The translations under genes were made by a program, and so were the position numbers. Positions 6,282 through 62,134 of a DNA stretch of 64,000 nt are shown piece after piece. The stretch spans positions 5,456-69,455 of the forward strand of contig CAYUHE010000005.1 in the NCBI GenBank assembly GCA_964444415.1, read 5' to 3'. The DNA is from an uncultured Gammaproteobacteria bacterium (GTDB taxonomy: Bacteria > Cyanobacteriota > Vampirovibrionia > Gastranaerophilales > CAJFVJ01). The notes below the pieces were generated by a model. The model was not told where the DNA came from. It saw nothing but the letters and a program-made list of their open reading frames with translations, and did no database searches. Each line of letters begins with the position of its first letter. The first letter of the stretch is position 1.

Positions 6282-6721
6282 CTTTTACCTTTAAAAAATT
6301 CCAGCAATAATTTTTGGCATTCTTCTTCCATTATACCGCCTTTGATTAAAATTTTTGAGTTGATAATTTTTTGCATATCCATTTTTGAGCCGAATGCACC
6401 GTAATTTGTGTCGTAAGCCCCAAAATAAACTTCTTTTATTTTGGATTGCAAAATCAAAGCCGCACACATCGGACAAGGCTCTAGCGTAACATATAATTTC
6501 GCCTCATTCAGCCGCCAAGTCTCCATTTTTTGGGCGGCTTCATCAATAACAATCATCTCTGCATGAGCGCTTGGTTTATTAAATTCTTCTCTTTTATTTG
6601 ACGATTTGGCAATTACAATATCATCAATAACCAAAACAGCTCCAACAGGTACATCTTGCCCTGAAAGATTGGCTTCATCTATTGCAATTTTCATAAAATT
6701 TTGGTGATTATTAATCATCAT
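6278..6721 (-). CDS. tadA: tRNA-specific adenosine deaminase
   Basis: CDA zinc motifs HAEMIVIDEA and PCPMCAALI, 147 aa. Confidence 0.85.
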   Translation of the reverse strand: MMINNHQNFMKIAIDEANLSGQDVPVGAVLVIDDIVIAKSSNKREEFNKPSAHAEMIVIDEAAQKMETWRLNEAKLYVTLEPCPMCAALILQSKIKEVYFGAYDTNYGAFGSKMDMQKIINSKILIKGGIMEEECQKLLLEFFKGKR

Positions 6722-8379
6722 TTAGCCAAAGGTAAGGTAAAAGTAACTCTGAAATTATTATCTGATGAAACTTCGATTTTGCCGTTCATTGTCTCTACCA
6801 AACCTTTTACTATAAAGAGCCCAAGACCAGTGCCTCTTGTAGTTCTTGTGGTAGAATCATCAATCCTAGTGAATTTATCAAACAAAGTATTTAATTTTTT
6901 CTTTTCGATTGTCGGACAGTTATTTTCGACAAAAATCTCAACATCATTAGACAATTGTTTCGCCCCGATTTTGATATTCGAATCAGAATATTTCATGGCA
7001 TTTTCGATTAAATTAATAATTATTTGCTCAACCCTATCAGGATCAGCATAAACGGGGGTAATATCATCAGGAACATCAATCTCAAATTGACGTTCATCAG
7101 GATTGTAACCGATAGAAGAAAGCACATTATCAATGGCTTCTTTCAAATGAACTTCTTGCGGAAAAACTTTAATAGAAGCTGATTCTATATCAGGAACAAC
7201 CAACAAATCATCTACCATTCGGCTCAATCTGTCTGTTTGCCTTTTGATTATTTTGAGCGATTCTTGCTGCATTTCTTTATCAATTACAACATCCTGCCTC
7301 AAAAGCCTTGAGGTATAACCTTTTATGCTCATTAAAGGAGTCCTGAACTCATGGCTTACGGTATCAATCAAATTTGATTTGAAGCTGTCTAATTGTTTAA
7401 GTTTTTGGTTATTGCGTTTAAGTTCTTTATAAGAAGTTTTGATTTTTTCGACCATTTTGTTAAATTCTTTAGACAAAAATATAATTTCATTAGGCGTAGT
7501 GAAATTGACAATCGGCCTGACTTTTCGGTTATAATTTCCTTCTGCAACAGCGTTTATAGCCTTGAAAAGCTGCCTAATATTTGTGTACAAATACATAAGA
7601 TAAATCAAACACAAAAAGATTATAATCCCAGCCGTAACAGCCAAAATCGAAATTATTTTACCCCTTGCGACATTAATACTATATTTTGAAAGTACTTTGG
7701 GCGTTGTTACGATGATTTTCCAATTCGTATTTTTCATTTTTATAACGATATTAGGCTCATTTTTTTTAAAATAAAATAGCTCTGCCACATCAGGATTGAG
7801 TTTTTCAGGAAGTTTTTTGATTAACTTATCAACTGCTTCTTTGCTATAATCACGAGGGATAATAACTTTGTTATCTTGATCAAGAATGTATATTTTTCGT
7901 TTTATACCTGAAAAATCCTTCTCTGTATTTTTTTCAAGCTGTGAAGCATCAATTTTTAGTTCAACAAATTTTTTGTAATCTGTTTTATAAATAAGACTTA
8001 CTGTATTTTCTTTTTGATTATAAATTGTGGCAAAAACTTTGCTGTTATGCTTTATAGGGCTTGAATTCAAAAGGCGTATAGACAAAATTTCAGGGTAAGT
8101 TTTCATTATTTCGGCTGAATAAGCGCCAATATTTTTGTATTTAGCCATATCTGCAATGTTTTTTGCAATTTGTTTTTTGCTTTCTACTTCATTTTCAAAA
8201 TACAATTTTACACTATTTGCACTCAAAAAAGCTGAGCTGACAAGCTCTTTTCTGACTGCTTGCTGGTTTACGTTTGTAATTATTGCGGTGCTAATTCCAA
8301 GAGGCACCAAAACTGCAATAAATATAACAAAAATCATCTGTTCGGCAATTTTGAGACGTCTTTTTTTTATAGTTTTCAT
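6718..8379 (-). CDS. Sensor histidine kinase (TM, extracytoplasmic domain, TM, HAMP, HisKA, HATPase)
   Basis: H-box SHEFRTPL, G-box GTGLGLFIVKG, two hydrophobic segments flanking a ~220-aa sensor region. 4-nt overlap with the response regulator gene. Confidence 0.87.
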   Translation of the reverse strand: MKTIKKRRLKIAEQMIFVIFIAVLVPLGISTAIITNVNQQAVRKELVSSAFLSANSVKLYFENEVESKKQIAKNIADMAKYKNIGAYSAEIMKTYPEILSIRLLNSSPIKHNSKVFATIYNQKENTVSLIYKTDYKKFVELKIDASQLEKNTEKDFSGIKRKIYILDQDNKVIIPRDYSKEAVDKLIKKLPEKLNPDVAELFYFKKNEPNIVIKMKNTNWKIIVTTPKVLSKYSINVARGKIISILAVTAGIIIFLCLIYLMYLYTNIRQLFKAINAVAEGNYNRKVRPIVNFTTPNEIIFLSKEFNKMVEKIKTSYKELKRNNQKLKQLDSFKSNLIDTVSHEFRTPLMSIKGYTSRLLRQDVVIDKEMQQESLKIIKRQTDRLSRMVDDLLVVPDIESASIKVFPQEVHLKEAIDNVLSSIGYNPDERQFEIDVPDDITPVYADPDRVEQIIINLIENAMKYSDSNIKIGAKQLSNDVEIFVENNCPTIEKKKLNTLFDKFTRIDDSTTRTTRGTGLGLFIVKGLVETMNGKIEVSSDNNFRVTFTLPLAK

Positions 8380-9071
8380 ATCTCACCAAACGGATTAAGT
8401 TTATAACCGACATTTGTGATTGTGTGCAAATACTTCGGAGACTTAGGATTTGGCTCTATTTTATGTCTTAATCCACCTACATGCACTCTCAGCATTCTCA
8501 CATCTTCATCAGCATCATAGCCCCAAACTTCATTTAAAAGCGTGCTGAGCGTTACAGCTTGATTGATATGCTGCATAAGACAATAAAGTATCTCAAATTC
8601 TGTCGGAGTGAGTTTTTTCACCTCGCCATTTATTGTAGCTTCAAGCGAATCTGGCGAAATTTTAATATCTCCTGCGTCCAAAACATCCCCTGACAAGGAG
8701 TCAGTTTTGGTATTTCTTCTTAACAAAGCCCTTACTCTCACAAGGAGTTCTTGAATATCGAAAGGTTTTACTAAGTAGTCATCCGCACCATTTTCAAAAC
8801 CCACAACCTTATCTTCGATTGCCCCTTTTGCAGTCAAAAGCAAAATGGGAATTTCTTTATTTACTTTTCTGATATTTTGACAAACTTCAAAGCCATCCAT
8901 TTTTGGCATCATTACATCGAGCAAAATCAAATCATAAGCACTTTTAAGTGCCATAGCCAAACCTTCTTGCCCATCACTTGCTGTGTCAACTAGATATCCG
9001 CTAAGTTGAAGATCAACTTTTAGCAATTCTTGTATTTCTTTGTCATCATCAACTATTAAAAGTCTGCTCAT
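8376..9071 (-). CDS. OmpR-family response regulator
   Basis: Receiver domain (LLIVDDD, LILLDVMMPKMDG, LLLTAK) plus a winged-helix C-terminus (LRVHVGGLRHKIE, GYKL). Start re-called to ATG 9071 (MSRLLIVDD). The ORF-track start at 9128 is a TTG extension. Confidence 0.9.
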   Translation of the reverse strand: MSRLLIVDDDKEIQELLKVDLQLSGYLVDTASDGQEGLAMALKSAYDLILLDVMMPKMDGFEVCQNIRKVNKEIPILLLTAKGAIEDKVVGFENGADDYLVKPFDIQELLVRVRALLRRNTKTDSLSGDVLDAGDIKISPDSLEATINGEVKKLTPTEFEILYCLMQHINQAVTLSTLLNEVWGYDADEDVRMLRVHVGGLRHKIEPNPKSPKYLHTITNVGYKLNPFGEI

Positions 9072-10205: not shown

Positions 10206-12194
10206 TCAATAAAGCCTTTTATAGCACCAATAAGAACGGAAAACTTTTTTGACGTAGTTTTGAGTTTCAGAATATGGAATATCTTCAACAAACTCATCTA
10301 AATCACTCGAGCGGTAATTATTTGTCCATTTTTTGACAGCACCCGGGCCTGCATTGTAAGAAGCTACCGCATACATCATATTGCCGCTATTATCATAGAG
10401 ATTTCTTAAGTAGGCACTGCCTAATTTTATATTAGTTTTGGGTCTTAACAAATCACTTCTTTTTGAATAGCTCAAACCTTTTAAACCTGCTATATGTGAT
10501 GCTGTCGAGGGCAATAGTTGCATAAGACCAAGCGCATCAGCAGGGCTTTTAATGACGGGGTTAAAATGGCTTTCTTCTTTAATTATAGAAATAATGATAG
10601 CAGCATCAAGCCTATTCTTTTTGGATGCAAGATTTATTTCTTCGACATAATACAAAGGGAATGCAAGTTTGCATATTTCATTAGTAATATCAGGATTGGG
10701 GTATTGTTCATCTATAATATTTCTGGCTTTCAGGCAAGATATTGAAGCCTCTTCTTTTTTGAATGCCACCCAGCTCTCTAGAATTTCATCAGTAATATCA
10801 TAAGCTGATACCAATTCAAAATCACCTATTTCGACAAGCTCTAAAAATTCTCGACCGTATTTTGCATACATTTTGTAAGCAGGATAGGGGTTATTTATAT
10901 TAAAAATTGAGTCTTTGAGTCTATTTGAATTTTTGACCGACCACATAGGATCTCTTTGATTTTTAAGTCCCTTTATACGACCATTTGCGCGAAAAGCATA
11001 ATAACTTGTATTGTAGTTTTCTAAAACTTCCTCGTAGCAATTTATGGCTTGTTGATTTTTGCCTTGTTTTTCAAGTATTTTGCCCGTCCAAAACAAAACT
11101 TTAGCCGAGGCATTGGTATTGTTAAATTTGCGTTTGTGCATTTTTGCAATTTTGAGTGCTTGCTTATATTTTTTGTGTTTATAATTGTCCCACATCATTT
11201 CCCACATTGCATCAGAGGCAAAATCACCATGCGGATATTCTTTAATAATTTGTCGATAAATGAGTAAAGATTTATCATCAGACGAAACTTTTGCCAAATT
11301 ATAAAGAGCATAATCATGAGCTTTTGTATTTTGACTCAAAGTTGAAAGCTCTCCCCAAGTTTCGACTTTGGTTTTTGGACTTATATTTGAATACAATTTT
11401 ATAATTTCAAGCAAATCATCTTTTGAAGTATATTTTGCATAAGTGGTCAAGCCCGTTTTGATTGTTTCCATCGCTTTATCTTTTTGACCTGTTCTGAGAT
11501 AGCATTTTGCCAAATAACACCATGCCTTTTGCTTTGAGATAACCTGCAATTGCTCAATTGCACTCCCGTATCTTTCTGCCGAATAATAAGTTATACCCAT
11601 ATTCAGTCTGTCATTGTTGCTCAAACTCGCATTGTAATCTTTCAGCTCCTTTATGCATTCAACTCCAAAACGACCTGATGGAGAAATCTCGATGTATTTT
11701 TTCCACAAATCAATTGAATACGGCAAATTTTTCTTTTTATTAATTGTGCCGACATAATAATATGCAGCAATTTTATATTCTGAATCAGGGTATTTTTCTG
11801 CAATTTTTCGAAAAGTTTTTTCTGCCAATCTAGTCTCGCCAGCTCTCATATAAGCTTGTCCAAGCCTATAATGTGCAGCAGGCAAAAGCTTCGATTTAGG
11901 AAATTTTGTTATAAGTGTCTCAAGTTTTTTGATTGCTGTTTTTTCATCTTCTATATTTGCTGCGCAATCAGCCTGATGATACAAAACCCCATCGTATGCG
12001 AAATAAAAAGGCGATACTTTTTTAAAAGCATAATAAGCTTCTTTGTATTCTCCTCTTTTTTCAAGCTCTAAAGCATTTTTATAGAAATTTCTGTCCAAAC
12101 TTGGTGCATTCAGAAAATTGCTATGCCCCAAAAACAGGTAAACTCCAAGGCCAATAAATATAAACCAAAATAATGTTGAATTTTTTATTCTCAT
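10206..12194 (-). CDS. Soluble lytic murein transglycosylase (Slt70-like, TPR/superhelical N-domain)
   Basis: C-terminal SLT motifs EESHFNP, GLMQL, AYNAGPG. N-terminal signal-like hydrophobic segment. Confidence 0.82.
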   Translation of the reverse strand: MRIKNSTLFWFIFIGLGVYLFLGHSNFLNAPSLDRNFYKNALELEKRGEYKEAYYAFKKVSPFYFAYDGVLYHQADCAANIEDEKTAIKKLETLITKFPKSKLLPAAHYRLGQAYMRAGETRLAEKTFRKIAEKYPDSEYKIAAYYYVGTINKKKNLPYSIDLWKKYIEISPSGRFGVECIKELKDYNASLSNNDRLNMGITYYSAERYGSAIEQLQVISKQKAWCYLAKCYLRTGQKDKAMETIKTGLTTYAKYTSKDDLLEIIKLYSNISPKTKVETWGELSTLSQNTKAHDYALYNLAKVSSDDKSLLIYRQIIKEYPHGDFASDAMWEMMWDNYKHKKYKQALKIAKMHKRKFNNTNASAKVLFWTGKILEKQGKNQQAINCYEEVLENYNTSYYAFRANGRIKGLKNQRDPMWSVKNSNRLKDSIFNINNPYPAYKMYAKYGREFLELVEIGDFELVSAYDITDEILESWVAFKKEEASISCLKARNIIDEQYPNPDITNEICKLAFPLYYVEEINLASKKNRLDAAIIISIIKEESHFNPVIKSPADALGLMQLLPSTASHIAGLKGLSYSKRSDLLRPKTNIKLGSAYLRNLYDNSGNMMYAVASYNAGPGAVKKWTNNYRSSDLDEFVEDIPYSETQNYVKKVFRSYWCYKRLY

Positions 12195-15164: not shown

Positions 15165-17717
15165 ATGTTTACAAAGTTTCTGAAAAAATTTGAATTACCG
15201 AACGCCAATGCTACCAAGGCTTATACCTTGTTTGATAAAGCTTTGTTGGAAGTTAAAAAAAGAAATTTTGAAAATGCTTTAAGCCTATTTGAAAAAGCCA
15301 AAGAAATTTTCATCGAAATCGGAAATGATGAAAAAATAGCGCTATGCGTTGCAGAAATTGCTATGGTTTATTTCAACATTTCCAGAGATAATCTTGCAAA
15401 ATCCACGCGTTTGCTTGAAGAAGCCAGCGCATATTTTGAAATCGGGACTAAAAAAAATGATATTTTAGCCCACATAATTCTTTATTTCGGTATTCTTGAA
15501 TATTCTCAAAAAAATTATACACGTGCTTTGAAATTATATAAAAATGCCCAAGAATTAACAAATAAAAATACCATGGTAAATGCCTGCATCTTAGATAATA
15601 TAGCGGTTTACAACTTAAGAGCAAAGAATTTCCCACTCGCCCAAAAATATCTTGAAGACTCTTTGCGTACAAAAATAAAATTCAAAAACAATGCCGAAAT
15701 AGCAGAAACAGCGACTCTTTTAGGTAGATATTTTGTCAGCGTTGAAGATTCGGCTAATGCAATTAAATTTTTAAAGGTTTCAAAAGAACTTTTAAAAAAA
15801 GATGATAATTATAACAGTCTTGCAAGGGTTTTAGATGAAATTACCAAAGCTTATTTGCTCGAAAAAGACACAAAAAAGGCTGAATATTATTACAATAAAG
15901 CTTTAGAAGTTGCCCCAAAATGCTTGAATACGAAAATATATGCATTTTTATATTGTACTTATGCCGAAATTTTAACCCTCAAAAATCGTCCTGAAGAAGC
16001 TTTGGAACTAATAAAAAACAATGTTGAGCCTATCTTTACAACTGCCAGAGAAAAAGCAATTTTAAAAAAAATAATGTCAAAAGTTTATATCAAACTCGGG
16101 CATTTTGAATTGGCATTAGAAAAAAACCATGAAGCATTGAATCTTTTTCACAGCATCGAAAATCATATTGACGCAATAAAATGTCATATTGATTTGGCTT
16201 ATATTTATGCCCACAAAGATTACCTTCAGATGGCTACATCCAGTCTTCTTGAGGCTTTAGAGCTTTCAAAATCATACGATTTGCAAGTATTTTCACAAAA
16301 AATCGAAGATATAATTTTCGAACTTGATAAAGAAGAATGGGTAAATATTCTAAACGACAAAGTCAGCAAGAAAAAAAGTCTTACCGATAACAAATCTTTA
16401 ATTGAAACACTTAGCTTGCTTGAAAATATCACACAGGAAGAAGATCCTTATAAAGACCCTTTGATTTCACTTTTGAAAATCGGTCGTTCGATTTCAGCAG
16501 AAACCGATTTGGATAAACTAATCAAAATCATGGAGCGTGAAACCAAAGCTGCTCTTGATGCGCAAACCTGTACTGTTTTCACTTATCATCATCAGACAAA
16601 TGAATTAAGTGCAAAAATTCTTGTCGGCGCAGAACTTCAAGAAGTAAGATTTTCTGCCCAAGAAGGTCTGGCGGGCTATGTTGCCAGAACAGGTGAAGGC
16701 GTAAACATCAAAGATGCTTATAACGATGATAGATTTAACCGTGATATAGATGCTTATCGCCCTGAAAAAACCAAAACTATTTTGTGCATTCCATTCAAAA
16801 ACCTCAATCAACAAGTGGTTGGTGTTATACAAGTTATTAACAAGAAAAATAATCGCATTTTCTTAGATAAAGATGAAGATTTACTTATGGCAATCGGCTC
16901 AAGTGCAGGCATAGCAATTGAAAATGCGATGCTATTCGCTAATCAGAAAATGATGTTTGAGGAGCAAAAAAATTCTTTCAAAAGTTTTGTTGATGCCTTA
17001 TCAAAATCCATCGACGCAAGAGACAGCATAACAGCAGGTCATTCAGGCAGAGTGAAAGATTTGTCCGCCGCTATCTGCATCGAAATGCGGATTTCTGATG
17101 AAGATGTAGAAGTTATAAAATACGCAGCAAATCTGCATGATATCGGCAAAATCGGCATCAGAGACAGCGTTCTTTTAAAATGCGGCAAACTTACAGATGA
17201 AGAATACAAACATATTCAAGAGCACGCAAAAATTACAGCCGATATCTTGAATAAAATTTCATTCCAAGAAAAATTAAAAGACGTTCCGTTTATCGCATCT
17301 TCTCATCACGAAAAATATGACGGTTCAGGTTATTTCAGAAATCTAAAAGGCTGCGACATTCCTTTTGGAGGAAGAGTTTTAGCGATAGCAGATGTTTTTG
17401 ATGCAATAACATCCAAACGTCATTATCGTGACAAAATGCCTATTGAAAGAGCTTTAGGGGTTTTACTAGAAGGTAAGGGAACGCATTTTGACCCTTGTAT
17501 TATTGACAAATTCTTTGAAATCCCTCTGCATAAAGTGCTTAATGTGATTATTTCAAACCATGAAAAAAGTTTGACCTCTTCTCAAATAGATTATTTTGAC
17601 AAATATACAGTTGATAATCTCTTTAAGTCCGCCATCAAACCAGAAGAAGAGAGAACTGTAATCGAAAGACTTTTAGTAACAAACTTCAATAAACTTTATT
17701 TAGGATTGGAAGAATAA
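15165..17717 (+). CDS. TPR - GAF - HD-GYP domain protein (putative c-di-GMP phosphodiesterase)
   Basis: An N-terminal ~400 aa of TPR-like helical repeats, then a GAF-like region (CTVFTY...GLAGYVARTGEGVNIKDAY...ILCIPF), then HD-GYP signatures HDIGKIGI and HHEKYDGSGY. Confidence 0.85.
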   Translation: MFTKFLKKFELPNANATKAYTLFDKALLEVKKRNFENALSLFEKAKEIFIEIGNDEKIALCVAEIAMVYFNISRDNLAKSTRLLEEASAYFEIGTKKNDILAHIILYFGILEYSQKNYTRALKLYKNAQELTNKNTMVNACILDNIAVYNLRAKNFPLAQKYLEDSLRTKIKFKNNAEIAETATLLGRYFVSVEDSANAIKFLKVSKELLKKDDNYNSLARVLDEITKAYLLEKDTKKAEYYYNKALEVAPKCLNTKIYAFLYCTYAEILTLKNRPEEALELIKNNVEPIFTTAREKAILKKIMSKVYIKLGHFELALEKNHEALNLFHSIENHIDAIKCHIDLAYIYAHKDYLQMATSSLLEALELSKSYDLQVFSQKIEDIIFELDKEEWVNILNDKVSKKKSLTDNKSLIETLSLLENITQEEDPYKDPLISLLKIGRSISAETDLDKLIKIMERETKAALDAQTCTVFTYHHQTNELSAKILVGAELQEVRFSAQEGLAGYVARTGEGVNIKDAYNDDRFNRDIDAYRPEKTKTILCIPFKNLNQQVVGVIQVINKKNNRIFLDKDEDLLMAIGSSAGIAIENAMLFANQKMMFEEQKNSFKSFVDALSKSIDARDSITAGHSGRVKDLSAAICIEMRISDEDVEVIKYAANLHDIGKIGIRDSVLLKCGKLTDEEYKHIQEHAKITADILNKISFQEKLKDVPFIASSHHEKYDGSGYFRNLKGCDIPFGGRVLAIADVFDAITSKRHYRDKMPIERALGVLLEGKGTHFDPCIIDKFFEIPLHKVLNVIISNHEKSLTSSQIDYFDKYTVDNLFKSAIKPEEERTVIERLLVTNFNKLYLGLEE

Positions 17718-18440
17718 TTATTCGTCTATATTTGATAAATAGGCTCTATAATCTCTTACCGTATCAGTATTTCTTCGATTTTTTAAAAGGATTTTATATT
17801 CTTCAGGGGTTAGATTTTTTTCATACATATCAAGCTCGTGAGGTTTTAGACTTGGTATAATTGATATATTGTAAGTTTGCCCTGTTTTTATATCCATCAA
17901 AAGACCTGTTGCACCTTCTTTATGGGAAAATAAATCTTGTTCTATTAAATTTTTTGCGGGGATTTTTAATTTTTGCATAAATTCCAAAGTCGCTCCTAGC
18001 ATAGAATCTTCTGTCCTGTAAAAACTCCCCCTCAAATGTCTTACAAAAAGATTCTCGGGATTTACATCAAAAAGAGCCTTTTGGATATTCCTGACTGAAA
18101 ACACATTCAAAAGTCTTTCAACAGAGTCCACATGCGCCAATAAACCTGTTTGGGTCACAGGGTCATGCATTGTCAGCTTTGTGCAACACCCTACACCATC
18201 TGTGCCTAAAAATCTTGTCGCCTCATTTAAATATTTTCGAACACAGAAAAAACTTTGCGGTACATGTTTTGCAAATGCAGGCACACCTTTTTTAAAATAT
18301 TTTACATCAATAGAATCAATATCTGCCTTCTCTAAAGTTTTAACAAAATTATAACCTTTGAAATTACAAACTTTTCTTTGCTTTTGAAAAGCATAAGGAT
18401 TTTTGCAACTGTTATTTGATACACTCGAAACGACTTTCAT
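17718..18440 (-). CDS. Hypothetical protein with a CheD-like (deamidase-fold) core
   Basis: The segment TDGVGCCTKLTMHDPVTQTGLLAHVD parallels the CheD signature as I recall it (TLGLGSCVAVCMRDPVAKVGAMAHVMLP), including the catalytic Cys and His positions. There is also a ~85-aa N-terminal extension. Confidence 0.4.
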   Translation of the reverse strand: MKVVSSVSNNSCKNPYAFQKQRKVCNFKGYNFVKTLEKADIDSIDVKYFKKGVPAFAKHVPQSFFCVRKYLNEATRFLGTDGVGCCTKLTMHDPVTQTGLLAHVDSVERLLNVFSVRNIQKALFDVNPENLFVRHLRGSFYRTEDSMLGATLEFMQKLKIPAKNLIEQDLFSHKEGATGLLMDIKTGQTYNISIIPSLKPHELDMYEKNLTPEEYKILLKNRRNTDTVRDYRAYLSNIDE

Positions 18441-20393: not shown

Positions 20394-22193
20394 ATGAAAA
20401 GAAGTGTTTTAACAGGTTTTTTAGTAAGTTCTTTGGCACTTTGTTTATTCCATAATGTTTGTTACGCAAAAACCACATATTATTCAAAAGTATTAAAATC
20501 TGACAAAAATACTGTTTCATCAAAAAATATATCAAAACATGATTCCAATATGGCAAAAAGTGGCGTTTTAATTGGCGATGCATATTGCGTACAATACAAA
20601 CTCGATTCAGCCAAAAAACAATTCGAAAGAGCTCTGAAATTAGACCCGAATAATTCAGATGCCCATAATGGACTGGGAATGGTTTATTATCTAAAAACAT
20701 CATCTTCTGATATGGCTATTATTAAAAAGAAAGATGAATTGCTGACTTCTGCTATTAAAGAATTTGAGCTTGCAATCAAATTCAAAGCGAAAAATGCTGA
20801 AGCCTACAATAATTTGGGAAGAGTTTATCAAGAAAAAGGCAATCTTGATAAAGCCCAAGAAAATTACAAAAAAGCGTTAGAAATTAATCCAAAATACTCC
20901 GATGCAATGTGCAATATGGGTTCTGTGGATTTTTTAAGAAACAAAATTCCTGATGCAATAGATAAATACAAAAAAGCTCTCACCTTAGATTCAAAAAGCC
21001 AAAAGGCTTATGTTTGCTTGGCTGAAGCTTATGCATCACAATCGAATTTTTCAGATGCTTTAACCGAAATTAATACATCTTTGTCATTATTTTCAAATAG
21101 TGCAGTTTCGCAAAATATTTTGGGCAAAATTTATGACTTACAGGGCAATAAAGTTGCTGCTATAAATTCTTATCGAAAAGCTATAAATATAAAACCTGAA
21201 AATATTGAACCTTATTTGGCGATAGCGGATATTTATCAAGAACGCGGTGATAATGATTTGGCAATTTCTGAGCTCAAAAATGCTTTGAGCATAAACCCTG
21301 ATTACAAAGAAGGCTATTTGAAACTTGCTGATATGCTGCTTATTGAAAATAAACCGGAACTTGCGATTGCTTATTATCAAAAAGTTGTTGATGACCAGAT
21401 TTTTTCTGCGTATGCACTAAAAGGCTTATCCAGAGCTTATTTCAATAATGCAAAAAATATTTCCGATTTGGCTTATATAACAACAAATGCTGAATATCTT
21501 GATGCCCAAAATGCTTTACTAAAAGCGATTGACGCAAATCCTAAAGATTTGCAATTATATTTGGCTCTTTTGCGAGTGTCTAAGCTTGCAGAATCTGATA
21601 ATGCAAGTCAAATTTATTTGACTCAAATAGTAAAAAAATCGGATTTTTCTCCTATTGCATCAGTTATAAAAGGTGAAGCTTATTTACTTTGCAACAAATA
21701 TAACGAAGCTGATTTAGAATTTGCAAATGCCGTTAACAAAGCGACTGAAGTGCAAGATTGTCTATATATTGGCGAGATTTTTATATTGAACAGACAATAT
21801 GATATGGCAACAAATGCTTTTTACAAGGCTCTTAATTTGGATGCCGAAAATAAAAAAGCCAGAGCAGGACTAAATATTATTGCGAGAAATAAAAAAATAG
21901 CAGACCATCATTATGATTTAGCAAAAGCTTACTATAAAGAAGGTCAAAAAAATCTGACAATTCAGGAGCTAAAAAAAGCAGTCAATTTCAATCCTAAAGA
22001 CAAAAAATCATACCTTATGATGGCAAAAACATACGAAAAGCTGCATGACTATTCAAATTCTTTGACTAATTATCAAGCTTTTTTGGGAATGAGCGATGCC
22101 AAAGATAAAAATTATAAAAAATACGACAGGAAAGTAAACTGCCTTAGCAAAAAGGTGAAAAATCAAAAAACTAAACCTGTTCAAAATTTGTAA
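20394..22193 (+). CDS. Secreted TPR-repeat protein
   Basis: N-terminal signal peptide (LVSSLALCLFHNVCYA), then many TPR units (AYNNLGRVYQEKGNLDKAQENYKKALEINPKY and similar). GAGAGG SD. Confidence 0.8.
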   Translation: MKRSVLTGFLVSSLALCLFHNVCYAKTTYYSKVLKSDKNTVSSKNISKHDSNMAKSGVLIGDAYCVQYKLDSAKKQFERALKLDPNNSDAHNGLGMVYYLKTSSSDMAIIKKKDELLTSAIKEFELAIKFKAKNAEAYNNLGRVYQEKGNLDKAQENYKKALEINPKYSDAMCNMGSVDFLRNKIPDAIDKYKKALTLDSKSQKAYVCLAEAYASQSNFSDALTEINTSLSLFSNSAVSQNILGKIYDLQGNKVAAINSYRKAINIKPENIEPYLAIADIYQERGDNDLAISELKNALSINPDYKEGYLKLADMLLIENKPELAIAYYQKVVDDQIFSAYALKGLSRAYFNNAKNISDLAYITTNAEYLDAQNALLKAIDANPKDLQLYLALLRVSKLAESDNASQIYLTQIVKKSDFSPIASVIKGEAYLLCNKYNEADLEFANAVNKATEVQDCLYIGEIFILNRQYDMATNAFYKALNLDAENKKARAGLNIIARNKKIADHHYDLAKAYYKEGQKNLTIQELKKAVNFNPKDKKSYLMMAKTYEKLHDYSNSLTNYQAFLGMSDAKDKNYKKYDRKVNCLSKKVKNQKTKPVQNL

Positions 22194-22236
22194 ACTTATG
22201 TAACAAAACTAATAAAAACTGAAATCCTATCTAACA

Positions 22237-22257
22237 TATATACTTTATATATATAAG
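22237..22257 (+). promoter_or_regulatory. 21-nt motif TATATACTTTATATATATAAG, identical copy at 53671-53691 (minus)
   Basis: Ends 30 nt upstream of ATG 22288. Contains a -10-like TATAAG. Confidence 0.35.
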
Positions 22258-22287
22258 GTTAAAGTTAGAAAAAGGTATTTTTAAGTT

Positions 22288-24537
22288 ATGACACTTACAT
22301 TGACTAATCTTCCATATGGTTATAAAGGTAATAATATTCTAAACCTTGGAAATAACAGTATTGAATACTGGCTCAAAAACTCTTATGGAGTTGAGGGCTT
22401 TACTACTAACGGCGAAAATATTTTGACTTTATTCGCCCAATTGACTTCTAATGCAGGATTTAATCCTTATGATGCCTTTGATTCTTATGATCAGGGTCTT
22501 GAAAATAACCCTATGGGGAATTATCTTAATGCAGGTACAAAAAATGCTTCTGTTCCTTATTATAAGCAAAAAGATAATGAGTATTATACCTATACAAATA
22601 GAACTACATATGCAACTGAAAATTCCACAAACCCCAACTATACTGTTCAAGAAGGGACTTATTATTTTGCCAATGCTGCTGCAAAAACTCTTTATGACCA
22701 AATAAAAACAGGTTGTACTACTGGAGAGGGAACTCTTGTATATTATCAAAACCCCCTTGGTACAACTACGTGGATTAAAATTACTGCAAATTACAGTTCT
22801 TATGGAGGCGTAGATGAATTAGTTGGAGATGGCCCTATTGATCCAAAAGGCACAGTAACACTTGATCAAAAAGTAACTGCTTTTGTGGGAACTGCTGATT
22901 TTACGAGTGCTACCAAAATAAATGGTGCTTATGACCAAGAAAAACTTGTAGCATTATACAAGAAACTTTCAGGAGAACTGCAAGGACTCAAAGAATACAC
23001 TCTTACAAATACTGAAATTAATGATGTTATTAAAGAAATTAACACTTTAAACGGCGCAGGCGTAATAGGCAATCTTGAAACTAAAATAACTGAGGGACAA
23101 AATGACCTGATATCTGTTTTTATGAATCAAGCGGATAGAGATTTTGCTTTTACATCCATTTTCGAACCAACTGACATGGCAGCGGCGGCTGCAATGAATG
23201 AGGCGACTCTTAGAAGTAAATTGTTCGGAACAAACTATACAAATAATCCTTTTTATCAATATTATGTAGGATTAAGAACAAATGATAAATTGACATTTGT
23301 CGATTCTATAAATCAGGCAATCCCCGAATTTAATACAGCAAAAAATCCAATAATAGATATAGACCCTTCTTTTAAAGTTTCTGATTATTCGGGAATACAA
23401 GCACAAGATGATAAATTAGGGCCTGCCGATGTTCTTGATAAACTGTATATCACTCAAGAGCTTAAAGCTTATTACAAACAATATGAAGAAGCTAAAAACA
23501 GATCCAAAAGTTTGGAATTATCACTAACACTTGCTCTTCAAAATTCTGCTGAATTCGATTTCAGAAAACTATTAGCAGAAAAGGTTTTGGCTCTATTAGA
23601 TACAGAACACAAATTGGAAGTCAGCAATGAATCCAGTATTGCTAATATTATAAAAAGAGGCAGCTCAACAGGACCTAGCGCATTAAAAGACGGTGTTTCA
23701 TCACATGCACCTTTTGACGGTTTCTATGGCAACATAAATACAAAAGCTACTCCTGTTACAGGTAATGGCTGTTTAGTTGACCCTTATGAAATTGTTATCA
23801 ACGGAACCACATACGTTTTTGGTAAAGATGACAATTCTAATGGAAATATCGATGACGTTTCAGAGATACTCGGTATTACGGACACTATGGAAAATCCTTT
23901 CCAAAGCTTACTCCAATTAGATATAAATAAAGACGGTCAAATCTCAAAAGAAGAACTTATCAGTAACGGCGTTGTTCTGAAAGCTGTTGATGATTCAGGA
24001 AAATTTACAAATAACAATTTTGATCTTTCTATGATAAATAATATTGATTTGAAAAAACTTAAGCCTCTCAAAGACGGTAATTCTGTAGGAACTTTTGAAA
24101 TGACTTTCTTGAATGGAAAAACTATAAAAGGTTCTCAAACTTTTGAAGATCAAGCTTATTTTAACCACTTGTTTGGAAAGCTTGTTGACTTAAGACCTTA
24201 TACAGGAACAACTGCAACAAATGTGAAAGCCGGCTCTACAGCCAAAACAACTACCGCAACAGCTTCAAAAACTGCAACTGCAGCTGCAGCCAACACACAA
24301 ACGACCAGCGACCTTACTCGTTCTATACTTTTGAAACAAATAAACAGTATGTATAGCGCTTTAATTATCGACGATACTTCAAATATCGAAACTATTTTGG
24401 ATAATATTTGCTGGAAACAAAGTACAATACTTACCCCTGCTCAAAAAATCAGAATAATAGACGGCATCGACCCATTAATGCCTGTTTATCAAATTGAGTC
24501 AGAAATCAAAAATTCATTAAAAAATCTGAATAACTAA
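22288..24537 (+). CDS. Large Asn/Thr/Tyr-rich protein with a twin Ca-loop module (paralog 1, 749 aa), function unknown
   Basis: Long uninterrupted ORF. DxNxDGxI loops (DDNSNGNIDD, DINKDGQISKEEL). Paralogous to the next ORF. No signal peptide or TM segment. Confidence 0.8.
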   Translation: MTLTLTNLPYGYKGNNILNLGNNSIEYWLKNSYGVEGFTTNGENILTLFAQLTSNAGFNPYDAFDSYDQGLENNPMGNYLNAGTKNASVPYYKQKDNEYYTYTNRTTYATENSTNPNYTVQEGTYYFANAAAKTLYDQIKTGCTTGEGTLVYYQNPLGTTTWIKITANYSSYGGVDELVGDGPIDPKGTVTLDQKVTAFVGTADFTSATKINGAYDQEKLVALYKKLSGELQGLKEYTLTNTEINDVIKEINTLNGAGVIGNLETKITEGQNDLISVFMNQADRDFAFTSIFEPTDMAAAAAMNEATLRSKLFGTNYTNNPFYQYYVGLRTNDKLTFVDSINQAIPEFNTAKNPIIDIDPSFKVSDYSGIQAQDDKLGPADVLDKLYITQELKAYYKQYEEAKNRSKSLELSLTLALQNSAEFDFRKLLAEKVLALLDTEHKLEVSNESSIANIIKRGSSTGPSALKDGVSSHAPFDGFYGNINTKATPVTGNGCLVDPYEIVINGTTYVFGKDDNSNGNIDDVSEILGITDTMENPFQSLLQLDINKDGQISKEELISNGVVLKAVDDSGKFTNNNFDLSMINNIDLKKLKPLKDGNSVGTFEMTFLNGKTIKGSQTFEDQAYFNHLFGKLVDLRPYTGTTATNVKAGSTAKTTTATASKTATAAAANTQTTSDLTRSILLKQINSMYSALIIDDTSNIETILDNICWKQSTILTPAQKIRIIDGIDPLMPVYQIESEIKNSLKNLNN

Positions 24538-24585
24538 AAGTCATTTTTAGAATGTTAACTTTTGTAAATAAACGCCTTTAAAAGC

Positions 24586-24613
24586 TAAAGATATTAACTT
24601 TACCTGCCGATAA
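24586..24613 (+). promoter_or_regulatory. Sigma-28 (FliA)-type promoter TAAA-N16-GCCGATAA
   Basis: Exact GCCGATAA octamer at 24606-24613 and TAAA(G) at 24586-24590, 44 nt upstream of ATG 24657. I found no other exact plus-strand GCCGATAA, reading by eye. One minus-strand copy at ~19979-19986 inside xerC has no matching -35. Confidence 0.5.
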
Positions 24614-24656
24614 ACATAACAAGTTAAGTGTTTATGTTAAATGTGTAGGTAAAGTA

Positions 24657-27600
24657 ATGTCCAACTATTATTATTTGTATAACTACGGTGGTAACGATCA
24701 CAAATTCTTGTACAACGGTGGTACTCCTGCTACTAGTAGTAACTCTTTATTTAACAATAACTTTATGGGAGCTATGTTCAATTACAATAAGATTGACTTA
24801 AGCTCTATGAGCTTCTTAACTGAAAATGTTTTAGGTGATACTAACCAAGGTGTTACTGTCACACAAGATTTTACAAGCTTTTATAATACTTACAAGACAA
24901 TTGTCGGCTCTGATATTATGAGTTATGCAAACAAATACTCAAATACGAATAATATGGCTCTAGGCGATATGATGAACTCCCAGGTTGGAAGTACTCCTGT
25001 CGCAGATGCGCTAACTAGTCTTTCACCAATTGCAGATTCTTTTCATTACAAACTGACTAAAGATGGTAATCCTTACAGATATACAGAAAGAGGCACAAGT
25101 AATTGTTTTGTAGGCGGGTGGAATGTTTTACCAACCAACGATGGCTTCACTCAACAAGAACTTAGCTACCAAACTTATTATGACTACAAAATGGCTCAAT
25201 TTAATAATAAAGACGCAGCTACTATTACAAATAAATTTACTAATGTAACATCATATGCTGATCTTCAAGCATTAGGTCTTCGCTATTCTGATATTAGTGG
25301 CACTGCTGGTGTAAATGGTAATGCTGATAATATCAAAGCCGTTTATACAAACCTTGTCAAGCAATTTACCAAGGAATTAAAAGCTATCAAACCAAGTACA
25401 ATTTCTGAAAATGACAGAATTACTATGGAAAAAAGTTTAGCAGCAAAACAAGCTGCTCTAAAATCTATTGATGATGATTTATTTGGCTATATAGAAGATG
25501 GAGCAGCTATTTATGATGGTTCTGTTACTACTTATAAAGCTAATTATACTTTTAATGGGAGTTCTCCTACTACTGCTGCCCAAGCTACTACTACTCTTCA
25601 ATATAATTCAGCTAGAGATGCTGAAACTTATGCAACTTGTCCTTATACTACTGTAGTAAATGACCTCTATTTTGCATCGGCTGCAGATGCAACTAAATAT
25701 ACTAATATAACTACTAATAATTATGCAGGAACTGTTGAATTATATGAAAAAACCGGAACCAACCCTGACGAGTTTACAAAATATACAGTAAATGCAGATG
25801 ATATAGTCAAAACTAATAATGTTATGTCCTATAGTATAGTTAATGGTACAACACAATCAAGCCTCCCAGGTGGTTATCCTATAACTTTTGAAAATAAACA
25901 TTTTGTATCGGAGCTTGATTTCATAAAATATCAAAGATTAGTGAATAATAGTTTGAATGATGGAACTACTATTACTTTTTGGGAAGAAATTTCAGCCGGA
26001 TCATATCAACAAAAAACAATAAATCAAACCAACAGAACAATAAATCTGACAAATTTATATAATTCTATCGGAAATATAAATACTGATGAAGCTACTAATG
26101 GCGGCACTATGAATTTTCAAGCAGAATTAGAAATAAGAATAGCTGCCTTTCTAGCTGCACAAAGTCCTGCTTTCCCTAAAGACAATCAATTTGTAAAAAG
26201 CCTTGCCAGTGCAATAATAACAGACCTAGTACCACCTGCTCCAGCAGCATCTTTAATAACATATACTCCTCAAACAACAACACCTGTTGTAGGTACTGGA
26301 AAAGATATTACAATAAGAGAAAAAGACCAAAACGTAACTAATGGTGTTGCTTCATTCACACTAACAACAGATGCTATAGCTAATATAAAAGGAATTATGA
26401 ATTGGGAAGAATCTCGTGATAGTCATCACAATATCTGGTGCCAGGGTGGTATAAGTTGTTGTACAGCTATGAATCATCCTGATCATCTATGGGAACAATT
26501 TGCAACTGCTATACACCTTGATGGATCTGGAAATTGCAACATAGATCTTCAAGGAAAACCTCTTACAACTGTTTTAAAACAGCTTATAATAGACTTTACA
26601 ATGGATCCTTGCGGTAGTGCAGATAAAGCACATGTATATAATCATATATTTGAAGATATGGATGGTTCAGGAGCTTGGAACTCATTTACTAATAATTATA
26701 AAGTTACAGGCGGAATGGAAGTTGATATTCGCCACTTAAAGAACCTTCAGGATGATGATTCTTTAGTTGCTCAATTAGCCAAAAGTGTCGAAGGTATGAT
26801 TTTGACTACTAATGACCCTCTGGCAGATAAAACAAAAGCATCAAAATATATTGCTGAAGTAACCGCAAGCATAATGGAACAATACTGGATTGAAAACTTC
26901 AACAAAAGCAATGCCGAAAATATAACTGATTATTTCATAAGAGAATTCAGAGCGTATTTCAATCCAAGAGGGATTAATGGAAATGTAGCCGCTTCATACA
27001 AAGATCTTACCTCAGGCAAATTCGTAGAATTTCAAATGGATTTCAGCGAAGATCCTAAAGTTATAAACTTCGTAGATAAAATAAGTGAACACCAAGCTTT
27101 TGTTCAAATTTATTCAAAAATGGAAGACCGCTCTAGAGCCGAAATGGAATTATTTGAAGCTTCTGCGGCTTTGGATGTAGTACAAAATATTAATACTCAA
27201 GAATACATCTTCAGACTAAATATGCTTGCAGCTCTTGAAACAGATTACGGCAAAAGTCTTGCATTAGGTGGTAATCTTGCTAATTTGACTGATTCACAAA
27301 AAGCTCTTCTTAAAGAAGTTTTCTCTCCTGTCACAAGAAACCTTGTAGAGCTTGGACCTGGCGCAAGTAAAAATCCTTGGTGGGAAGAGTATTTCCCTTG
27401 GTTCAAAGGCTTCTACGGTACTTTGCCTGAAGGAGCAACACCTGATGATATGTTTGATGAAAACGGTCATATCAAAGCTTCTATGCTCAGTCAAAATGGT
27501 GCTCTAATTGACCCTTATATTGTAAATATAAACGGCGTTGATTATGTTATGGGCGTTGATGAAAATAAAGACGGCAAAATCAATGGCGCAAAAGAAGTTC

Positions 27601-28475
27601 TTGGTATCAATGATACTCTTGATACAAGCTTTAAAAGCTTAAAAGCCTTAGACTTGAATGCTGATGGCATTGTTTCTAAAGCAGAATTGCAAGAAAAAGG
27701 AATTATCTTTGAAGCAATAAATGCTACAGACAGATTGAACGGTGCCAAAATCAATACAGATTTCATCAAATCAATTGACTTGGCCTCTATGCAAAACGCT
27801 GATGGACAAAATGGAGTTTATGGTACTTTTGAAGTTCAATTAGCTAACGGCAAAAAATCAGGCGGTATTCAAACTTTTGAAACTCAAGATTATTTCAACA
27901 ACTTATTCGGTAAATATGTCGATATGTCTTTCTTGTCTACAACAAAAGATGAAACACCGGCACCTGTGAAACCACCTGTAGTAGTTCCTGAAGCTAAACC
28001 AGTGGCAACTGAAAAATCTGTAGCTGCAGCAAACACTACAGATGTGGTAAAAACTGCAGACAAATTTGATATTAATGCTATACAAGCAAAAAAATTCAAC
28101 TTCTTCTCCTATTTAGATAATGTTGATAAAACTGAAGAAACAGCACCGACTTTAGCACCAGCTTTAAAACCAATTGTAGCTCCAGCTGTAGCTCAAGATA
28201 TTAAACCTGAACCAGCAGTTAAACCTGTGGCACAAACAGTTATTAAACCTATTATTTTAGATGCTGCTAAAGAACCTGTTATTATAATTAATAATAAAGA
28301 AATGACGCCTGATGCTCTTGTTGATGATATTTGCTGGAAAATGGGCATAGACAAATTAACTGTTAAACAAAGATATGATGTTTTAGGAAGTATTGATGTC
28401 AGTAAATCTTCAGATGTTATAATCAGAAAACTTGAAGAAAAATTATCATCAATTAAAACTCAATTCTCAGCTTAA
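24657..28475 (+). CDS. Very large Asn/Thr/Tyr-rich protein with a twin Ca-loop module (paralog 2, 1272 aa), function unknown
   Basis: Long ORF. DENKDGKINGAKE and DLNADGIVSKAEL loops. A Pro/Ala/Val/Lys linker. Tail DDICWKMGIDKLTVKQRYDVLGSID, homologous to the tail of paralog 1. Confidence 0.85.
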   Translation: MSNYYYLYNYGGNDHKFLYNGGTPATSSNSLFNNNFMGAMFNYNKIDLSSMSFLTENVLGDTNQGVTVTQDFTSFYNTYKTIVGSDIMSYANKYSNTNNMALGDMMNSQVGSTPVADALTSLSPIADSFHYKLTKDGNPYRYTERGTSNCFVGGWNVLPTNDGFTQQELSYQTYYDYKMAQFNNKDAATITNKFTNVTSYADLQALGLRYSDISGTAGVNGNADNIKAVYTNLVKQFTKELKAIKPSTISENDRITMEKSLAAKQAALKSIDDDLFGYIEDGAAIYDGSVTTYKANYTFNGSSPTTAAQATTTLQYNSARDAETYATCPYTTVVNDLYFASAADATKYTNITTNNYAGTVELYEKTGTNPDEFTKYTVNADDIVKTNNVMSYSIVNGTTQSSLPGGYPITFENKHFVSELDFIKYQRLVNNSLNDGTTITFWEEISAGSYQQKTINQTNRTINLTNLYNSIGNINTDEATNGGTMNFQAELEIRIAAFLAAQSPAFPKDNQFVKSLASAIITDLVPPAPAASLITYTPQTTTPVVGTGKDITIREKDQNVTNGVASFTLTTDAIANIKGIMNWEESRDSHHNIWCQGGISCCTAMNHPDHLWEQFATAIHLDGSGNCNIDLQGKPLTTVLKQLIIDFTMDPCGSADKAHVYNHIFEDMDGSGAWNSFTNNYKVTGGMEVDIRHLKNLQDDDSLVAQLAKSVEGMILTTNDPLADKTKASKYIAEVTASIMEQYWIENFNKSNAENITDYFIREFRAYFNPRGINGNVAASYKDLTSGKFVEFQMDFSEDPKVINFVDKISEHQAFVQIYSKMEDRSRAEMELFEASAALDVVQNINTQEYIFRLNMLAALETDYGKSLALGGNLANLTDSQKALLKEVFSPVTRNLVELGPGASKNPWWEEYFPWFKGFYGTLPEGATPDDMFDENGHIKASMLSQNGALIDPYIVNINGVDYVMGVDENKDGKINGAKEVLGINDTLDTSFKSLKALDLNADGIVSKAELQEKGIIFEAINATDRLNGAKINTDFIKSIDLASMQNADGQNGVYGTFEVQLANGKKSGGIQTFETQDYFNNLFGKYVDMSFLSTTKDETPAPVKPPVVVPEAKPVATEKSVAAANTTDVVKTADKFDINAIQAKKFNFFSYLDNVDKTEETAPTLAPALKPIVAPAVAQDIKPEPAVKPVAQTVIKPIILDAAKEPVIIINNKEMTPDALVDDICWKMGIDKLTVKQRYDVLGSIDVSKSSDVIIRKLEEKLSSIKTQFSA

Positions 28476-28596
28476 TATTCACTGATGTGGAACTAAAGGC
28501 TAAGCATGAGCTTTGACTTTAGAGAAACTGAACGATAGCGACGTAAAAATCTTCGATTTTACAGGAGCTTAATATTTACGGGTGTGGAATAAATAT

Positions 28597-28631
28597 TAAA
28601 AAAGAGCCTGCTTTTCAGCAAGCTCTTTTTT
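28597..28631. terminator. Bidirectional terminator (AGAGCCTGC-TTTTCA-GCAAGCTCT) between paralog 2 and rpsR
   Basis: 9-bp stem with one mismatch, flanked by an A-run and a T-run. Confidence 0.6.
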
Positions 28632-28646
28632 AATATTTATATACGA

Positions 28647-53670: not shown

Positions 53671-53691
53671 CTTATATATATAAAGTATATA
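53671..53691 (-). promoter_or_regulatory. Second identical copy of the 21-nt motif TATATACTTTATATATATAAG (read on the minus strand)
   Basis: Ends 50 nt upstream of ATG 53620. Confidence 0.35.
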
Positions 53692-61921: not shown

Positions 61922-62134
61922 TGGATACTCCTTATCTTTGTGTTACATCCTTGTGGGAATATTATTCCCTACTGGTTTATACCCGATGAGATATTCGCTT
62001 TATCATAAGTTTTGTAAACTTTATTGTATTAACCCTGTATTTAAGCTTATTAAGGCTTACAAAATTTACAATCCTTAATATTATTAGCTGTTATTATGTT
62101 TTTATAGCGTATTTTTATATTTGCAGAGGGATTT

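Follow-up and report, generated by a model that had tools for sequence, protein, structure and literature searches.

Tandem paralogous proteins with a predicted FrpC-type self-processing module: probable clip-and-link exoproteins with a circumstantial flagellar link

Introduction

The genes P1 and P2 are neighbors on the forward strand of a 64,000-nucleotide stretch of DNA from an uncultured bacterium (contig CAYUHE010000005.1, positions 5,456 to 69,455; hereafter the window), where the original prediction, made from the sequence alone, had put its two open reading frames (ORFs). They encode large paralogous proteins that share a module of about 137 amino acids (aa). On the evidence of a structural model and of sequence profiles, this module is a self-processing module (SPM) like the one in FrpC from Neisseria meningitidis. 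P1 and P2 are best read as tandem paralogous "clip-and-link" exoproteins of a flagellated freshwater melainabacterium, four-part proteins that would be cut at an Asp-Pro bond, an interpretation given a probability of about 0.7. What the analysis shows is that the two proteins are paralogous, that the module matches the SPM in fold and in sequence, that the Asp-Pro pair, the Ca ligands, and a promoter motif are conserved, and that flagellar genes occur in the surroundings.

The original prediction is partly supported. It had found no characterized family for either protein, a view now superseded because the shared module matches the FrpC-type SPM. This identity shifts the reading from a Ca-binding surface protein to a Ca-triggered protein that would cleave and cross-link itself. 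Coordinates of all features are collected in Table 1.

Identity of the shared module

An AlphaFold model of the P1 module, built from an alignment of 47 sequences, was confident, with a predicted local distance difference test (pLDDT) value of 90.9 and a predicted template modeling (pTM) score of 0.86. Foldseek, which the original prediction had proposed for this module together with AlphaFold, returned the FrpC SPM as the sole significant fold match in the PDB: 6sjx_A at E = 6.3e-5 and 6sjw_A at E = 2.4e-4, with a probability of 1.00 and TM scores of 0.62/0.52 over 139 columns. The next match had E = 0.057. The SPM fold consists of two beta-sheets and a helix-turn-helix; in 2020 it was described as novel and was reported to have no likeness elsewhere in the PDB (PMC7078468).

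Sequence comparison points to the same family. Searched against PDB sequences, the module profile recovered FrpC at E = 3.2e-4 over 89 profile positions, in an alignment that lays DxNGNGxIDxxxELFG on DDNSNGNIDDVSEILG and LDSNGDNI on LDINKDGQI. The hhalign comparison of module and FrpC gave 83.6% probability, E = 8e-6, and a score of 38.6, and 30 shuffles reached 17.6 at most. Of the FrpC sequence used for hhalign, residues 45-143 of the PDB chain were confirmed by the profile match, and the remaining residues agree with all residue numbers quoted in PMC7078468. The precomputed Pfam label on P1 and its relatives is PF26745 "SPM," mostly graded "weak" and unmarked for protein P0016, and evidently denotes the FrpC-type SPM family.

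Scans of P1 and P2 with Pfam (a set that did not include the PF26745 model), NCBIfam, and PHROGs gave only sub-threshold EF-hand matches and a 14-bit XopAW match, every one of them due to the EF loop alone. The EF-hand matches were single; EF-hand_5 scored 20.4 bits against a cutoff of 25.9, and a sub-threshold EF-hand_5 match in P2 lies at residues 994-1013. These scans gave no dockerin match for either protein, and a PDB sequence search with the full-length profile found EF-hand loops only. The Ca sites had been described as EF-hand- or dockerin-like; the first likeness stands and the second is not supported.

Scissile bond and calcium ligands

Both modules open on Asp-Pro-Tyr, starting at D498 in P1 and D952 in P2, and the global profile alignment places this Asp-Pro on D414-P415 of FrpC. 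Of 95 aligned family modules, 94 have the Asp and 94 have the Pro, and the only invariant columns in the 47-sequence alignment are the Asp, the Pro, and one Gly. The Gly equivalent to FrpC G477 is present in 100 of 100 members.

Each module was originally said to carry two Ca loops, and these prove to be conserved in homologues. Across 100 module-bearing proteins, loop 1 keeps D514 in 85 of 96, N516 in 75, and G519 in 78, with Glu in 59 and Asp in 30 at E526; loop 2 keeps D545 in 77 of 100, D549 in 91, and E556 in 95. FrpC has four Ca sites, at 419-424 plus D456, 462-474, 499-511, and 521-532 (PMC7078468). Equivalents of sites 462-474 and 499-511 are present and conserved in the P1/P2 family; site 419-424 is replaced by a beta-turn (I-N-G), and site 521-532 is degenerate (VDDSGKLT).

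The scissile bond of FrpC is surrounded by a "narrow port" and a fifth Ca site made of L475, G477, D478, G491, and D579-L582 (PMC7078468). I527 and G529 of P1 align with L475 and G477. D532 (92 of 96) lies two residues off the D478 position, and E620 (acidic in 78 of 91) is a possible equivalent of D579 in a part of the alignment that is unreliable. About 32 further residues of FrpC are absent from the P1/P2 module in the global alignment, including the loop T430-G450, which can be deleted from FrpC without loss of activity (PMC7078468). The FrpC pair Trp451-Trp519 is T-shaped and stabilizes the protein but is not catalytic (PMC7078468). Judged by the model and the conserved residues, the module of P1 and P2 is probably an active, minimal SPM.

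Architecture of P1 and P2

The homology between P1 and P2 had been described as a C-proximal module of about 135 aa. The module coordinates are exact, and the homology is longer: BLASTP aligns about 370 aa (P1 391-724 with P2 811-1173) at 30% identity and E = 2e-38. The N-terminal parts also match in a profile comparison (P1 1-286 with P2 1-299) at 90% probability and E = 1.8e-6. By their sequences, P1 and P2 are probably homologous and collinear from end to end, apart from a large variable insert midway through P2. One further profile comparison, of alignment A4 with A7, was set aside as evidence of paralogy owing to contamination of A4 by one P2-type sequence.

The two proteins share a pattern of conserved N- and C-terminal parts and a variable middle rich in insertions and deletions. 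In the P2 alignments A2 and A7, residues 1-290 and 720-1095 are conserved and 290-720, a segment that contains Cys and Trp, are variable. Such hypervariable middles fit exposed proteins.

The tail is common to P1, P2, and a third paralogue type, P3. Seven of its residues (C708, W709, L715, T716, Q719, I723, and D728) are invariant in the 12-sequence alignment A4, one P2-type sequence included, which bears out the conserved "ICWK" tail first noticed. Taken alone, the tails of P1 and P2 align weakly (E = 0.029). The extreme end is conserved as [LF][NQ][FLI]SA in the P2 type, the P3 type, and distant P1 proteins. In P1 the tail is a candidate region for targeting or for the binding of a chaperone, and cleavage would remove it.

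The compositional claims of the original prediction hold. The linkers are Thr/Ala-rich in P1 and Pro/Ala/Val/Lys-rich in P2, and the Asn/Thr/Tyr contents of 9.5/10.7/5.3% (P1) and 8.5/9.0/4.6% (P2) compare with 6.2/5.3/3.0% in five of the window's housekeeping proteins. Both proteins are acidic, with isoelectric points (pI) of 4.7-4.8, and have few cysteines. No signal peptide or membrane segment was found in P1 or P2, where the highest 19-residue Kyte-Doolittle mean is 0.90 and 1.45, respectively. The tetratricopeptide repeat (TPR) protein encoded directly upstream of P1 does have a hydrophobic N terminus, as claimed, reaching 1.82 at residue 5.

The AlphaFold model of full-length P1 (pLDDT 60.9) has low confidence over 1-115, helices in 190-455, a beta-rich region at 497-630, and four C-terminal helices at 673-692, 700-710, 717-726, and 733-748. 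Searching the PDB with this model gave only noise, and flagellin matches at E = 0.5 and above were not counted as evidence.

Two features of the coding region stand apart. An insertion at about aa 105-170 of P1 (about nt 22600-22800), absent from most P1 relatives, resembles about aa 330-380 of P2 (YYFANAAAKTLYDQI...GTLVYYQ in P1 and LYFASAADATKYTNI...GTVELYEK in P2; hhalign E = 0.002) and might represent a small beta-rich unit able to move from one variable region to another. By eye, a 23-nt imperfect direct repeat, GCTTAATATTyACnGrTGTGGAA, was seen at 28470-28492 and 28567-28589 (20 of 23 identical); its first copy overlaps the P2 stop codon, and a hairpin with a T-run follows near 28598-28632.

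The wider module family

A word-index protein search with P2 found two relatives only, and an exhaustive profile search revealed a wider family in which the module of about 140 residues occurs alone in about 100 other proteins. At least seven architectures are represented. The tail is shared by the P1, P2, and P3 types and is missing from other members that have no Sec signal.

In about 30 small members, of 212-290 aa, a classical Sec signal peptide is followed by a short spacer and by an SPM that forms the very C terminus. They include P0057, P0062, P0064-P0070, P0073-P0094, and others, such as the protein encoded at 8001-8663 of locus L009, and cleavage in these proteins would free just a reactive peptide of about 50-60 residues. 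Five members (P0045, P0048, P0050, P0052, and P0056) have Flp/TadE-like prepilin N termini (for example, MITKRNSAQGLLEYIIIGGIVAVA), which suggests pilin-like proteins that would cleave or cross-link themselves. These five proteins end in a hydrophobic segment that follows the SPM (L007 7741-9018 and L008 3905-5182), and one of their loci is near flagellar rod genes. Further architectures comprise small Asn/Gln/Tyr-rich proteins and coiled-coil proteins of about 600 aa.

The module is often paired with predicted export signals, which favors an extracytoplasmic role and suggests that the melainabacterial lineage may use clip-and-link chemistry broadly.

Proposed mechanism

When FrpC binds Ca2+, its SPM folds, and the Asp414-Pro415 bond at the N-terminal edge of the SPM is twisted and broken, which leaves Asp414 as a cyclic anhydride (PMC7078468). 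This anhydride can form an isopeptide bond with a lysine in what is termed the clip-and-link reaction (PMC7078468). Because the FrpC SPM binds Ca2+ at about 150 uM (PMC7078468), FrpC is processed only outside the cell.

P1 and P2 would follow the same course. Each is composed, in order, of a passenger (498 aa in P1 and 952 aa in P2), a minimal SPM of about 137 aa, a low-complexity linker, and a helical tail of about 70 aa. In the Ca2+-poor cytoplasm the SPM would remain unfolded, as FrpC leads one to expect, a state suited to export as an unfolded chain. Outside the cell Ca2+ would occupy the loops and the SPM would fold, straining the Asp-Pro bond until it broke between D498 and P499 in P1 or between D952 and P953 in P2. 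The freed passenger would terminate in a reactive Asp anhydride, which would either hydrolyze or react with a lysine close by to give an isopeptide bond, and by this bond the passenger would be covalently fixed to a partner. The SPM, linker, and tail would be discarded. For P1 and P2 themselves, cleavage, cross-linking, export, and target are what we infer.

Several points count against this interpretation. Self-cleavage has been demonstrated only for FrpC, ApxIVA, and a few close homologues with repeats-in-toxin (RTX) sequences. The module is about 22% identical to FrpC in the Foldseek alignment, two of the four FrpC Ca sites are missing from it, and equivalents of D478 and D579 are not placed with confidence. 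Neither the P1 nor the P2 module contains a Trp, so there is no pair like W451-W519. The passengers of P1 and P2 showed no recognizable family or fold in family scans or in a PDB search with the P1 model.

The missing Trp pair and Ca sites and the uncertain D478 and D579 equivalents would also fit a module that has lost cleavage and serves as a purely structural Ca2+-binding domain, an EF-hand pair on a beta-sandwich, in surface or matrix proteins that stay intact. The fact that canonical Pfam EF-hand models match loop 2 below threshold only goes the same way. Such a structural role explains poorly, however, why the boundary Asp-Pro, with one Gly, is the best conserved feature across seven architectures, and FrpC itself stays active when deprived of the loop that is absent here. 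A purely structural module is quite improbable.

The absence of a signal peptide or membrane segment, together with the long predicted helices at 190-455, could also describe cytoplasmic proteins that are never exported, for example, cytoskeletal proteins or regulatory Ca sensors. The Ca2+ requirement of the FrpC SPM is far above cytoplasmic levels, many proteins related through the module have a Sec or prepilin-type signal, and the hypervariable middles and the acidic Asn/Thr/Tyr-rich composition fit exposed proteins, all of which make a cytoplasmic function very unlikely.

Table 1. Features of the P1/P2 region and of flagellar genes in the window
Feature	Position (nt)	Strand	Description
TPR-repeat protein	20394-22193	+	599 aa; hydrophobic N-terminal signal-like segment; many TPR family matches
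P1 leader, non-coding	22189-22287	+	TGTAAAC-TTA-TGTAAC, N15, TGAAAT, then TATATACTTTATATATATAAGG, then ribosome-binding region
P1	22288-24537	+	749 aa; passenger 1-498, SPM 499-634, Thr/Ala linker, helical tail
P1 SPM	23779-24189	+	aa 498-634
Predicted scissile bond, P1	23779-23784	+	Asp498-Pro499
P1 Ca loop 1	23827-23865	+	aa 514-526
P1 Ca loop 2	23920-23955	+	aa 545-556
P1 linker	24190-24327	+	aa 635-680; Thr/Ala-rich, low-complexity; pLDDT < 50 for 639-698
P1 tail	24328-24534	+	aa 681-749; conserved, helical, "ICWK" motif
TGTTAACTTTTGTAA motif	24553-24567	+	Also present where the P1 leader begins (22189-22203)
Sigma-28 (FliA/SigD)-type promoter-like site	24586-24613	+	TAAAGATA-N12-GCCGATAA; 44 nt 5' of the P2 start codon
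P2	24657-28475	+	1272 aa; passenger 1-952, SPM 953-1089, Pro/Ala/Val/Lys linker, helical tail
P2 SPM	27510-27923	+	aa 952-1089; 42% identical to P1 module
Predicted scissile bond, P2	27510-27515	+	Asp952-Pro953
P2 Ca loop 1	27558-27596	+	aa 968-980
P2 Ca loop 2	27651-27686	+	aa 999-1010
P2 tail	28251-28472	+	aa 1199-1272; helical
FlhA, flagellar type III export gate	12-1679	+	C-terminal 555 aa, cut by the window edge; TIGR01398 E = 6.6e-187
Flagellin	61106-61921	-	271 aa; Flagellin_N E = 8e-22, Flagellin_C E = 7.6e-13

Flagellar context and export route

The sigma-28-type promoter originally claimed for P2 is real as a pattern and unique in the window, where TAAAGATA-N12-GCCGATAA has this single match and 0.06 would be expected. 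The site is found upstream of P2 in seven of seven readable loci (the window and loci L001, L002, L003, L006, L013, and L014), where it keeps its position while the flanking bases vary. The sigma-28 consensus is known from Escherichia coli and Bacillus subtilis. Set against TAAA-N15-GCCGATAA, the P2 site has a spacer that exceeds the E. coli consensus by one base, and judged by the consensus of these two species it would bind sigma-28. No further convincing sigma-28 site was found in the window with two mismatches allowed.

FlhA and a flagellin are encoded in the window, which points to a flagellar export apparatus in the organism. In L013, the most divergent relative, genes of the P1, P2, and P3 types stand in tandem between three flagellin genes. 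The flagellins beside these SPM genes (L013 315-15567) have 952 aa, 270 aa, and at least 1575 aa, the last with Glug repeats, and thus include unusually large ones. With the promoter at every readable locus, FlhA and flagellin in the window, and the flagellins of L013, the flagellar-regulon link raised as a possibility in the original prediction gains support; it is strengthened, circumstantial, and unproven. The disordered, conserved N terminus and the conserved C-terminal helices may also be likened to the export signal and chaperone-binding region of late flagellar substrates.

Two other genes of the window touch on this subject. Directly 3' of flhA, 1698-2285 encodes a 195-aa PilZ-domain protein that could be a flagellar regulator responsive to cyclic di-GMP (c-di-GMP). 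On the reverse strand, 10206-12194 encodes a TPR and lytic-transglycosylase protein whose best named match is the flagellar-assembly BB0259 type, at 174 bits against a 234-bit cutoff.

The context also holds points on the other side. No sigma-28 motif was found at flagellin genes, including the window's own, whose upstream region (61922-62134) has no sigma-28 consensus but holds TAAAGTTT and TGTAAATTTTGTAA. The P1 and P2 types adjoin flagellins at one locus only, L013, and the P1-type gene of L016 sits among nusB, ftsY, and ffh. No fliA was seen within the 64-kb window, and according to the literature complete flagellar gene sets occur in only some Gastranaerophilales. With regard to type I export, neither P1 nor P2 contains a GGxGxD repeat or matches an RTX family, and the window and the related loci examined yielded no type I secretion genes.

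On balance, the favored export route for P1 and P2 is the flagellar type III system, a tentative proposal that falls short of probable. The SPM mechanism would equally hold if a type I system exported the proteins through their conserved tail and the sigma-28-type site and flagellin context reflected co-regulation with motility. The SPM proteins described so far all belong to the RTX proteins and leave the cell by type I systems (PMC7078468), with the SPM placed N-terminal to a C-terminal secretion region. The tail shared by the P1, P2, and P3 types, with its conserved extreme end, would suit such a region, and the acidic character and scarcity of cysteines are in keeping with it. About ten loci examined have no ATP-binding cassette (ABC) transporter, membrane-fusion, or TolC-type gene beside them, however, there are no RTX repeats to drive Ca-dependent ratcheting, and the tail is also missing from other family members that lack a Sec signal. 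Type I export is somewhat unlikely, and the remaining weight lies with other routes.

The flagellar proposal can be extended. The SPM might be a general melainabacterial tool for building extracellular structures, used on Sec-exported, prepilin-like, and signal-less proteins, in which P1, P2, and P3 would pass through a sigma-28-controlled flagellar type III system and graft their passengers covalently on the filament, each other, or a target surface. This extended proposal is unlikely as a whole.

Regulatory DNA

The leader of P1 is far more conserved than the protein it precedes: among the window, L001, and L002, the leaders are 94% identical, whereas the proteins are 64-74% identical. Its invariant blocks, TGTAAC-N15-TGAAAT and, after a variable spacer, TATATACTTTATATATATAAGG, are common to P3-type leaders of other organisms. 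Leaders were located in L011 (5848-5954), L012 (about 7370-7467), L013 (3190-3293 and 9430-9527), L014 (about 4430-4526), and L016 (about 2632-2719). The 13-mer TATATACTTTATA has 11 occurrences in 10 loci and, where checked, lies about 45 nt upstream of a P1- or P3-type start.

There is no RNA structure in the P1 leader by the tests applied, with no Rfam match, a consensus fold of -2 kcal/mol, and no covariation. From its sequence, the leader may be a promoter for an alternative sigma factor combined with an operator or 5' leader. It differs from the sigma-28-like site of P2, and the sigma-28 match holds for P2 only. The start of the leader does recur near P2, in that the pattern TGTWAWYTTWTGTAA occurs in the window only at 22189-22203 and 24553-24567 (0.03 expected), and the TGTTAACTTTTGTAA motif is conserved in the P1-P2 spacers of L001, L002, L003, and L013.

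Other observations concern the reach of this leader. The block TATATACTTTATATATATAAG recurs on the reverse strand at 53671-53691 of the window, about 50 nt upstream of the reverse-strand ORF 53282-53620, with the 13-mer core expected 0.00 times by chance. This ORF encodes 112 aa with no family match and may be another member of the leader regulon. In L012, a sigma factor of the extracytoplasmic function (ECF) type and a zf-HC2 anti-sigma factor are encoded at 6526-7366, directly 5' of a leader-bearing P3-type gene, and this pair makes candidate regulators of the P1/P3 leader.

Gene neighborhood and host

The survey of synteny that the original prediction had proposed shows the TPR-P1-P2 arrangement kept in several relatives. 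The TPR gene is directly 5' of P1 in L001, L002, L004, L006, and L014 and is absent from that place in L013 and L016; it is a syntenic neighbor whose functional link to P1 is speculative. The order xerC, TPR, P1, P2, and rpsR-ssb-rpsF is kept in relatives in which P1 is only 49-74% identical, and the P1-P2 pair occupies the same core-genome site in at least six relatives. An origin of P1 and P2 from a phage or mobile element was rejected on the grounds of this stable core-genome synteny and the lack of PHROG matches.

Farther upstream, 15165-17717 on the forward strand encodes a TPR-GAF-HD protein (HD_5, HD-GYP-like) that is syntenic in L002, L004, and L006, and 17718-18440 on the reverse strand is a 240-aa ORF with no family match that L004 and L006 lack.

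The window has 31-37% G+C and contains housekeeping genes and the lipopolysaccharide genes kdsB and lpxK, features that fit a non-photosynthetic melainabacterium, a relative of the cyanobacteria. Among named genomes, relatives are present only in two metagenome-assembled genomes, "Cyanobacteria bacterium OH_PDB_112" and "Candidatus Gastranaerophilales bacterium." The window sequence was found in freshwater metagenomes, and one metatranscriptome of the same freshwater sample had nothing from the P1/P2 region.

Significance and comparison with known systems

In the literature found, the SPM belongs solely to toxin-like RTX proteins of pathogens such as Neisseria. What is new here is a divergent, smaller module, assigned to the SPM by model and profile, in non-RTX tandem paralogues from a different phylum with a flagellar-type promoter and context. 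This would widen the biological range of Ca-triggered protein self-cleavage and cross-linking, across at least seven architectures that include some of the Sec and prepilin types. If the extended proposal were true, an SPM would be known for the first time outside RTX/type I proteins, and a covalent, self-catalyzed decoration would for the first time be tied to a flagellum. The question raised is whether a self-processing protein can be a product of the flagellar regulon or a cargo of flagellar type III export. The SPM also underlies the NeissLock protein-ligation technology, whose developers searched bacterial diversity for better modules, and a natural module of about 137 aa without the dispensable loop is an obvious candidate for protein ligation. 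For the uncultured Melainabacteria, the module offers a first functional handle on conserved core genes.

The closest known system is FrpC/FrpA of N. meningitidis (PDB 6SJW and 6SJX), which has the same module fold with Asp-Pro at its N-terminal edge. The likeness extends to a 13-residue EF-like loop 1 followed by E-[IL]-[LF]-G, a loop 2 of the form LDxNxDG, and the order of passenger, SPM, and C-terminal region. An exported protein is encoded just 5' in both cases, FrpD in Neisseria and the TPR protein here, the role of the latter being speculative; FrpD binds residues 1-414 of FrpC (PMC7078468). In contrast to FrpC, P1 and P2 come from a different phylum, lack RTX repeats, and are not near any known type I system. 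Their module has about 137 aa, compared with 177 in FrpC, and lacks the T430-G450 loop, the Trp451-Trp519 pair, and two Ca sites. P1 and P2 also differ from FrpC in being tandem paralogues, in their conserved helical tail, and in the sigma-28-type promoter.

ApxIVA of Actinobacillus pleuropneumoniae is the second protein with Ca-dependent Asp-Pro processing by an SPM in vitro (PMC7078468). Like P1 and P2, it has a large passenger N-terminal to the SPM, but it belongs to the RTX proteins and is a type I substrate in a pathogen of the proteobacteria, and the likeness is one of description only.

P1 and P2 may also be set beside non-flagellar cargo of flagellar type III systems expressed under sigma-28, such as FlaC and the Fed proteins of Campylobacter and YplA of Yersinia. 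The points in common are the lack of a Sec signal, a sigma-28-type promoter, a flagellar gene neighborhood, and a flagellated organism. These cargo proteins have no self-processing module, however, and P2, at 1272 aa, is far bigger than typical substrates.

The von Willebrand D domains of mucins and FCGBP undergo autocatalytic Asp-Pro cleavage at GDPH, giving a reactive anhydride that can cross-link. The chemistry is the same, with the cut between Asp and Pro, but these domains are eukaryotic, have an unrelated fold, and are triggered by low pH instead of Ca2+.

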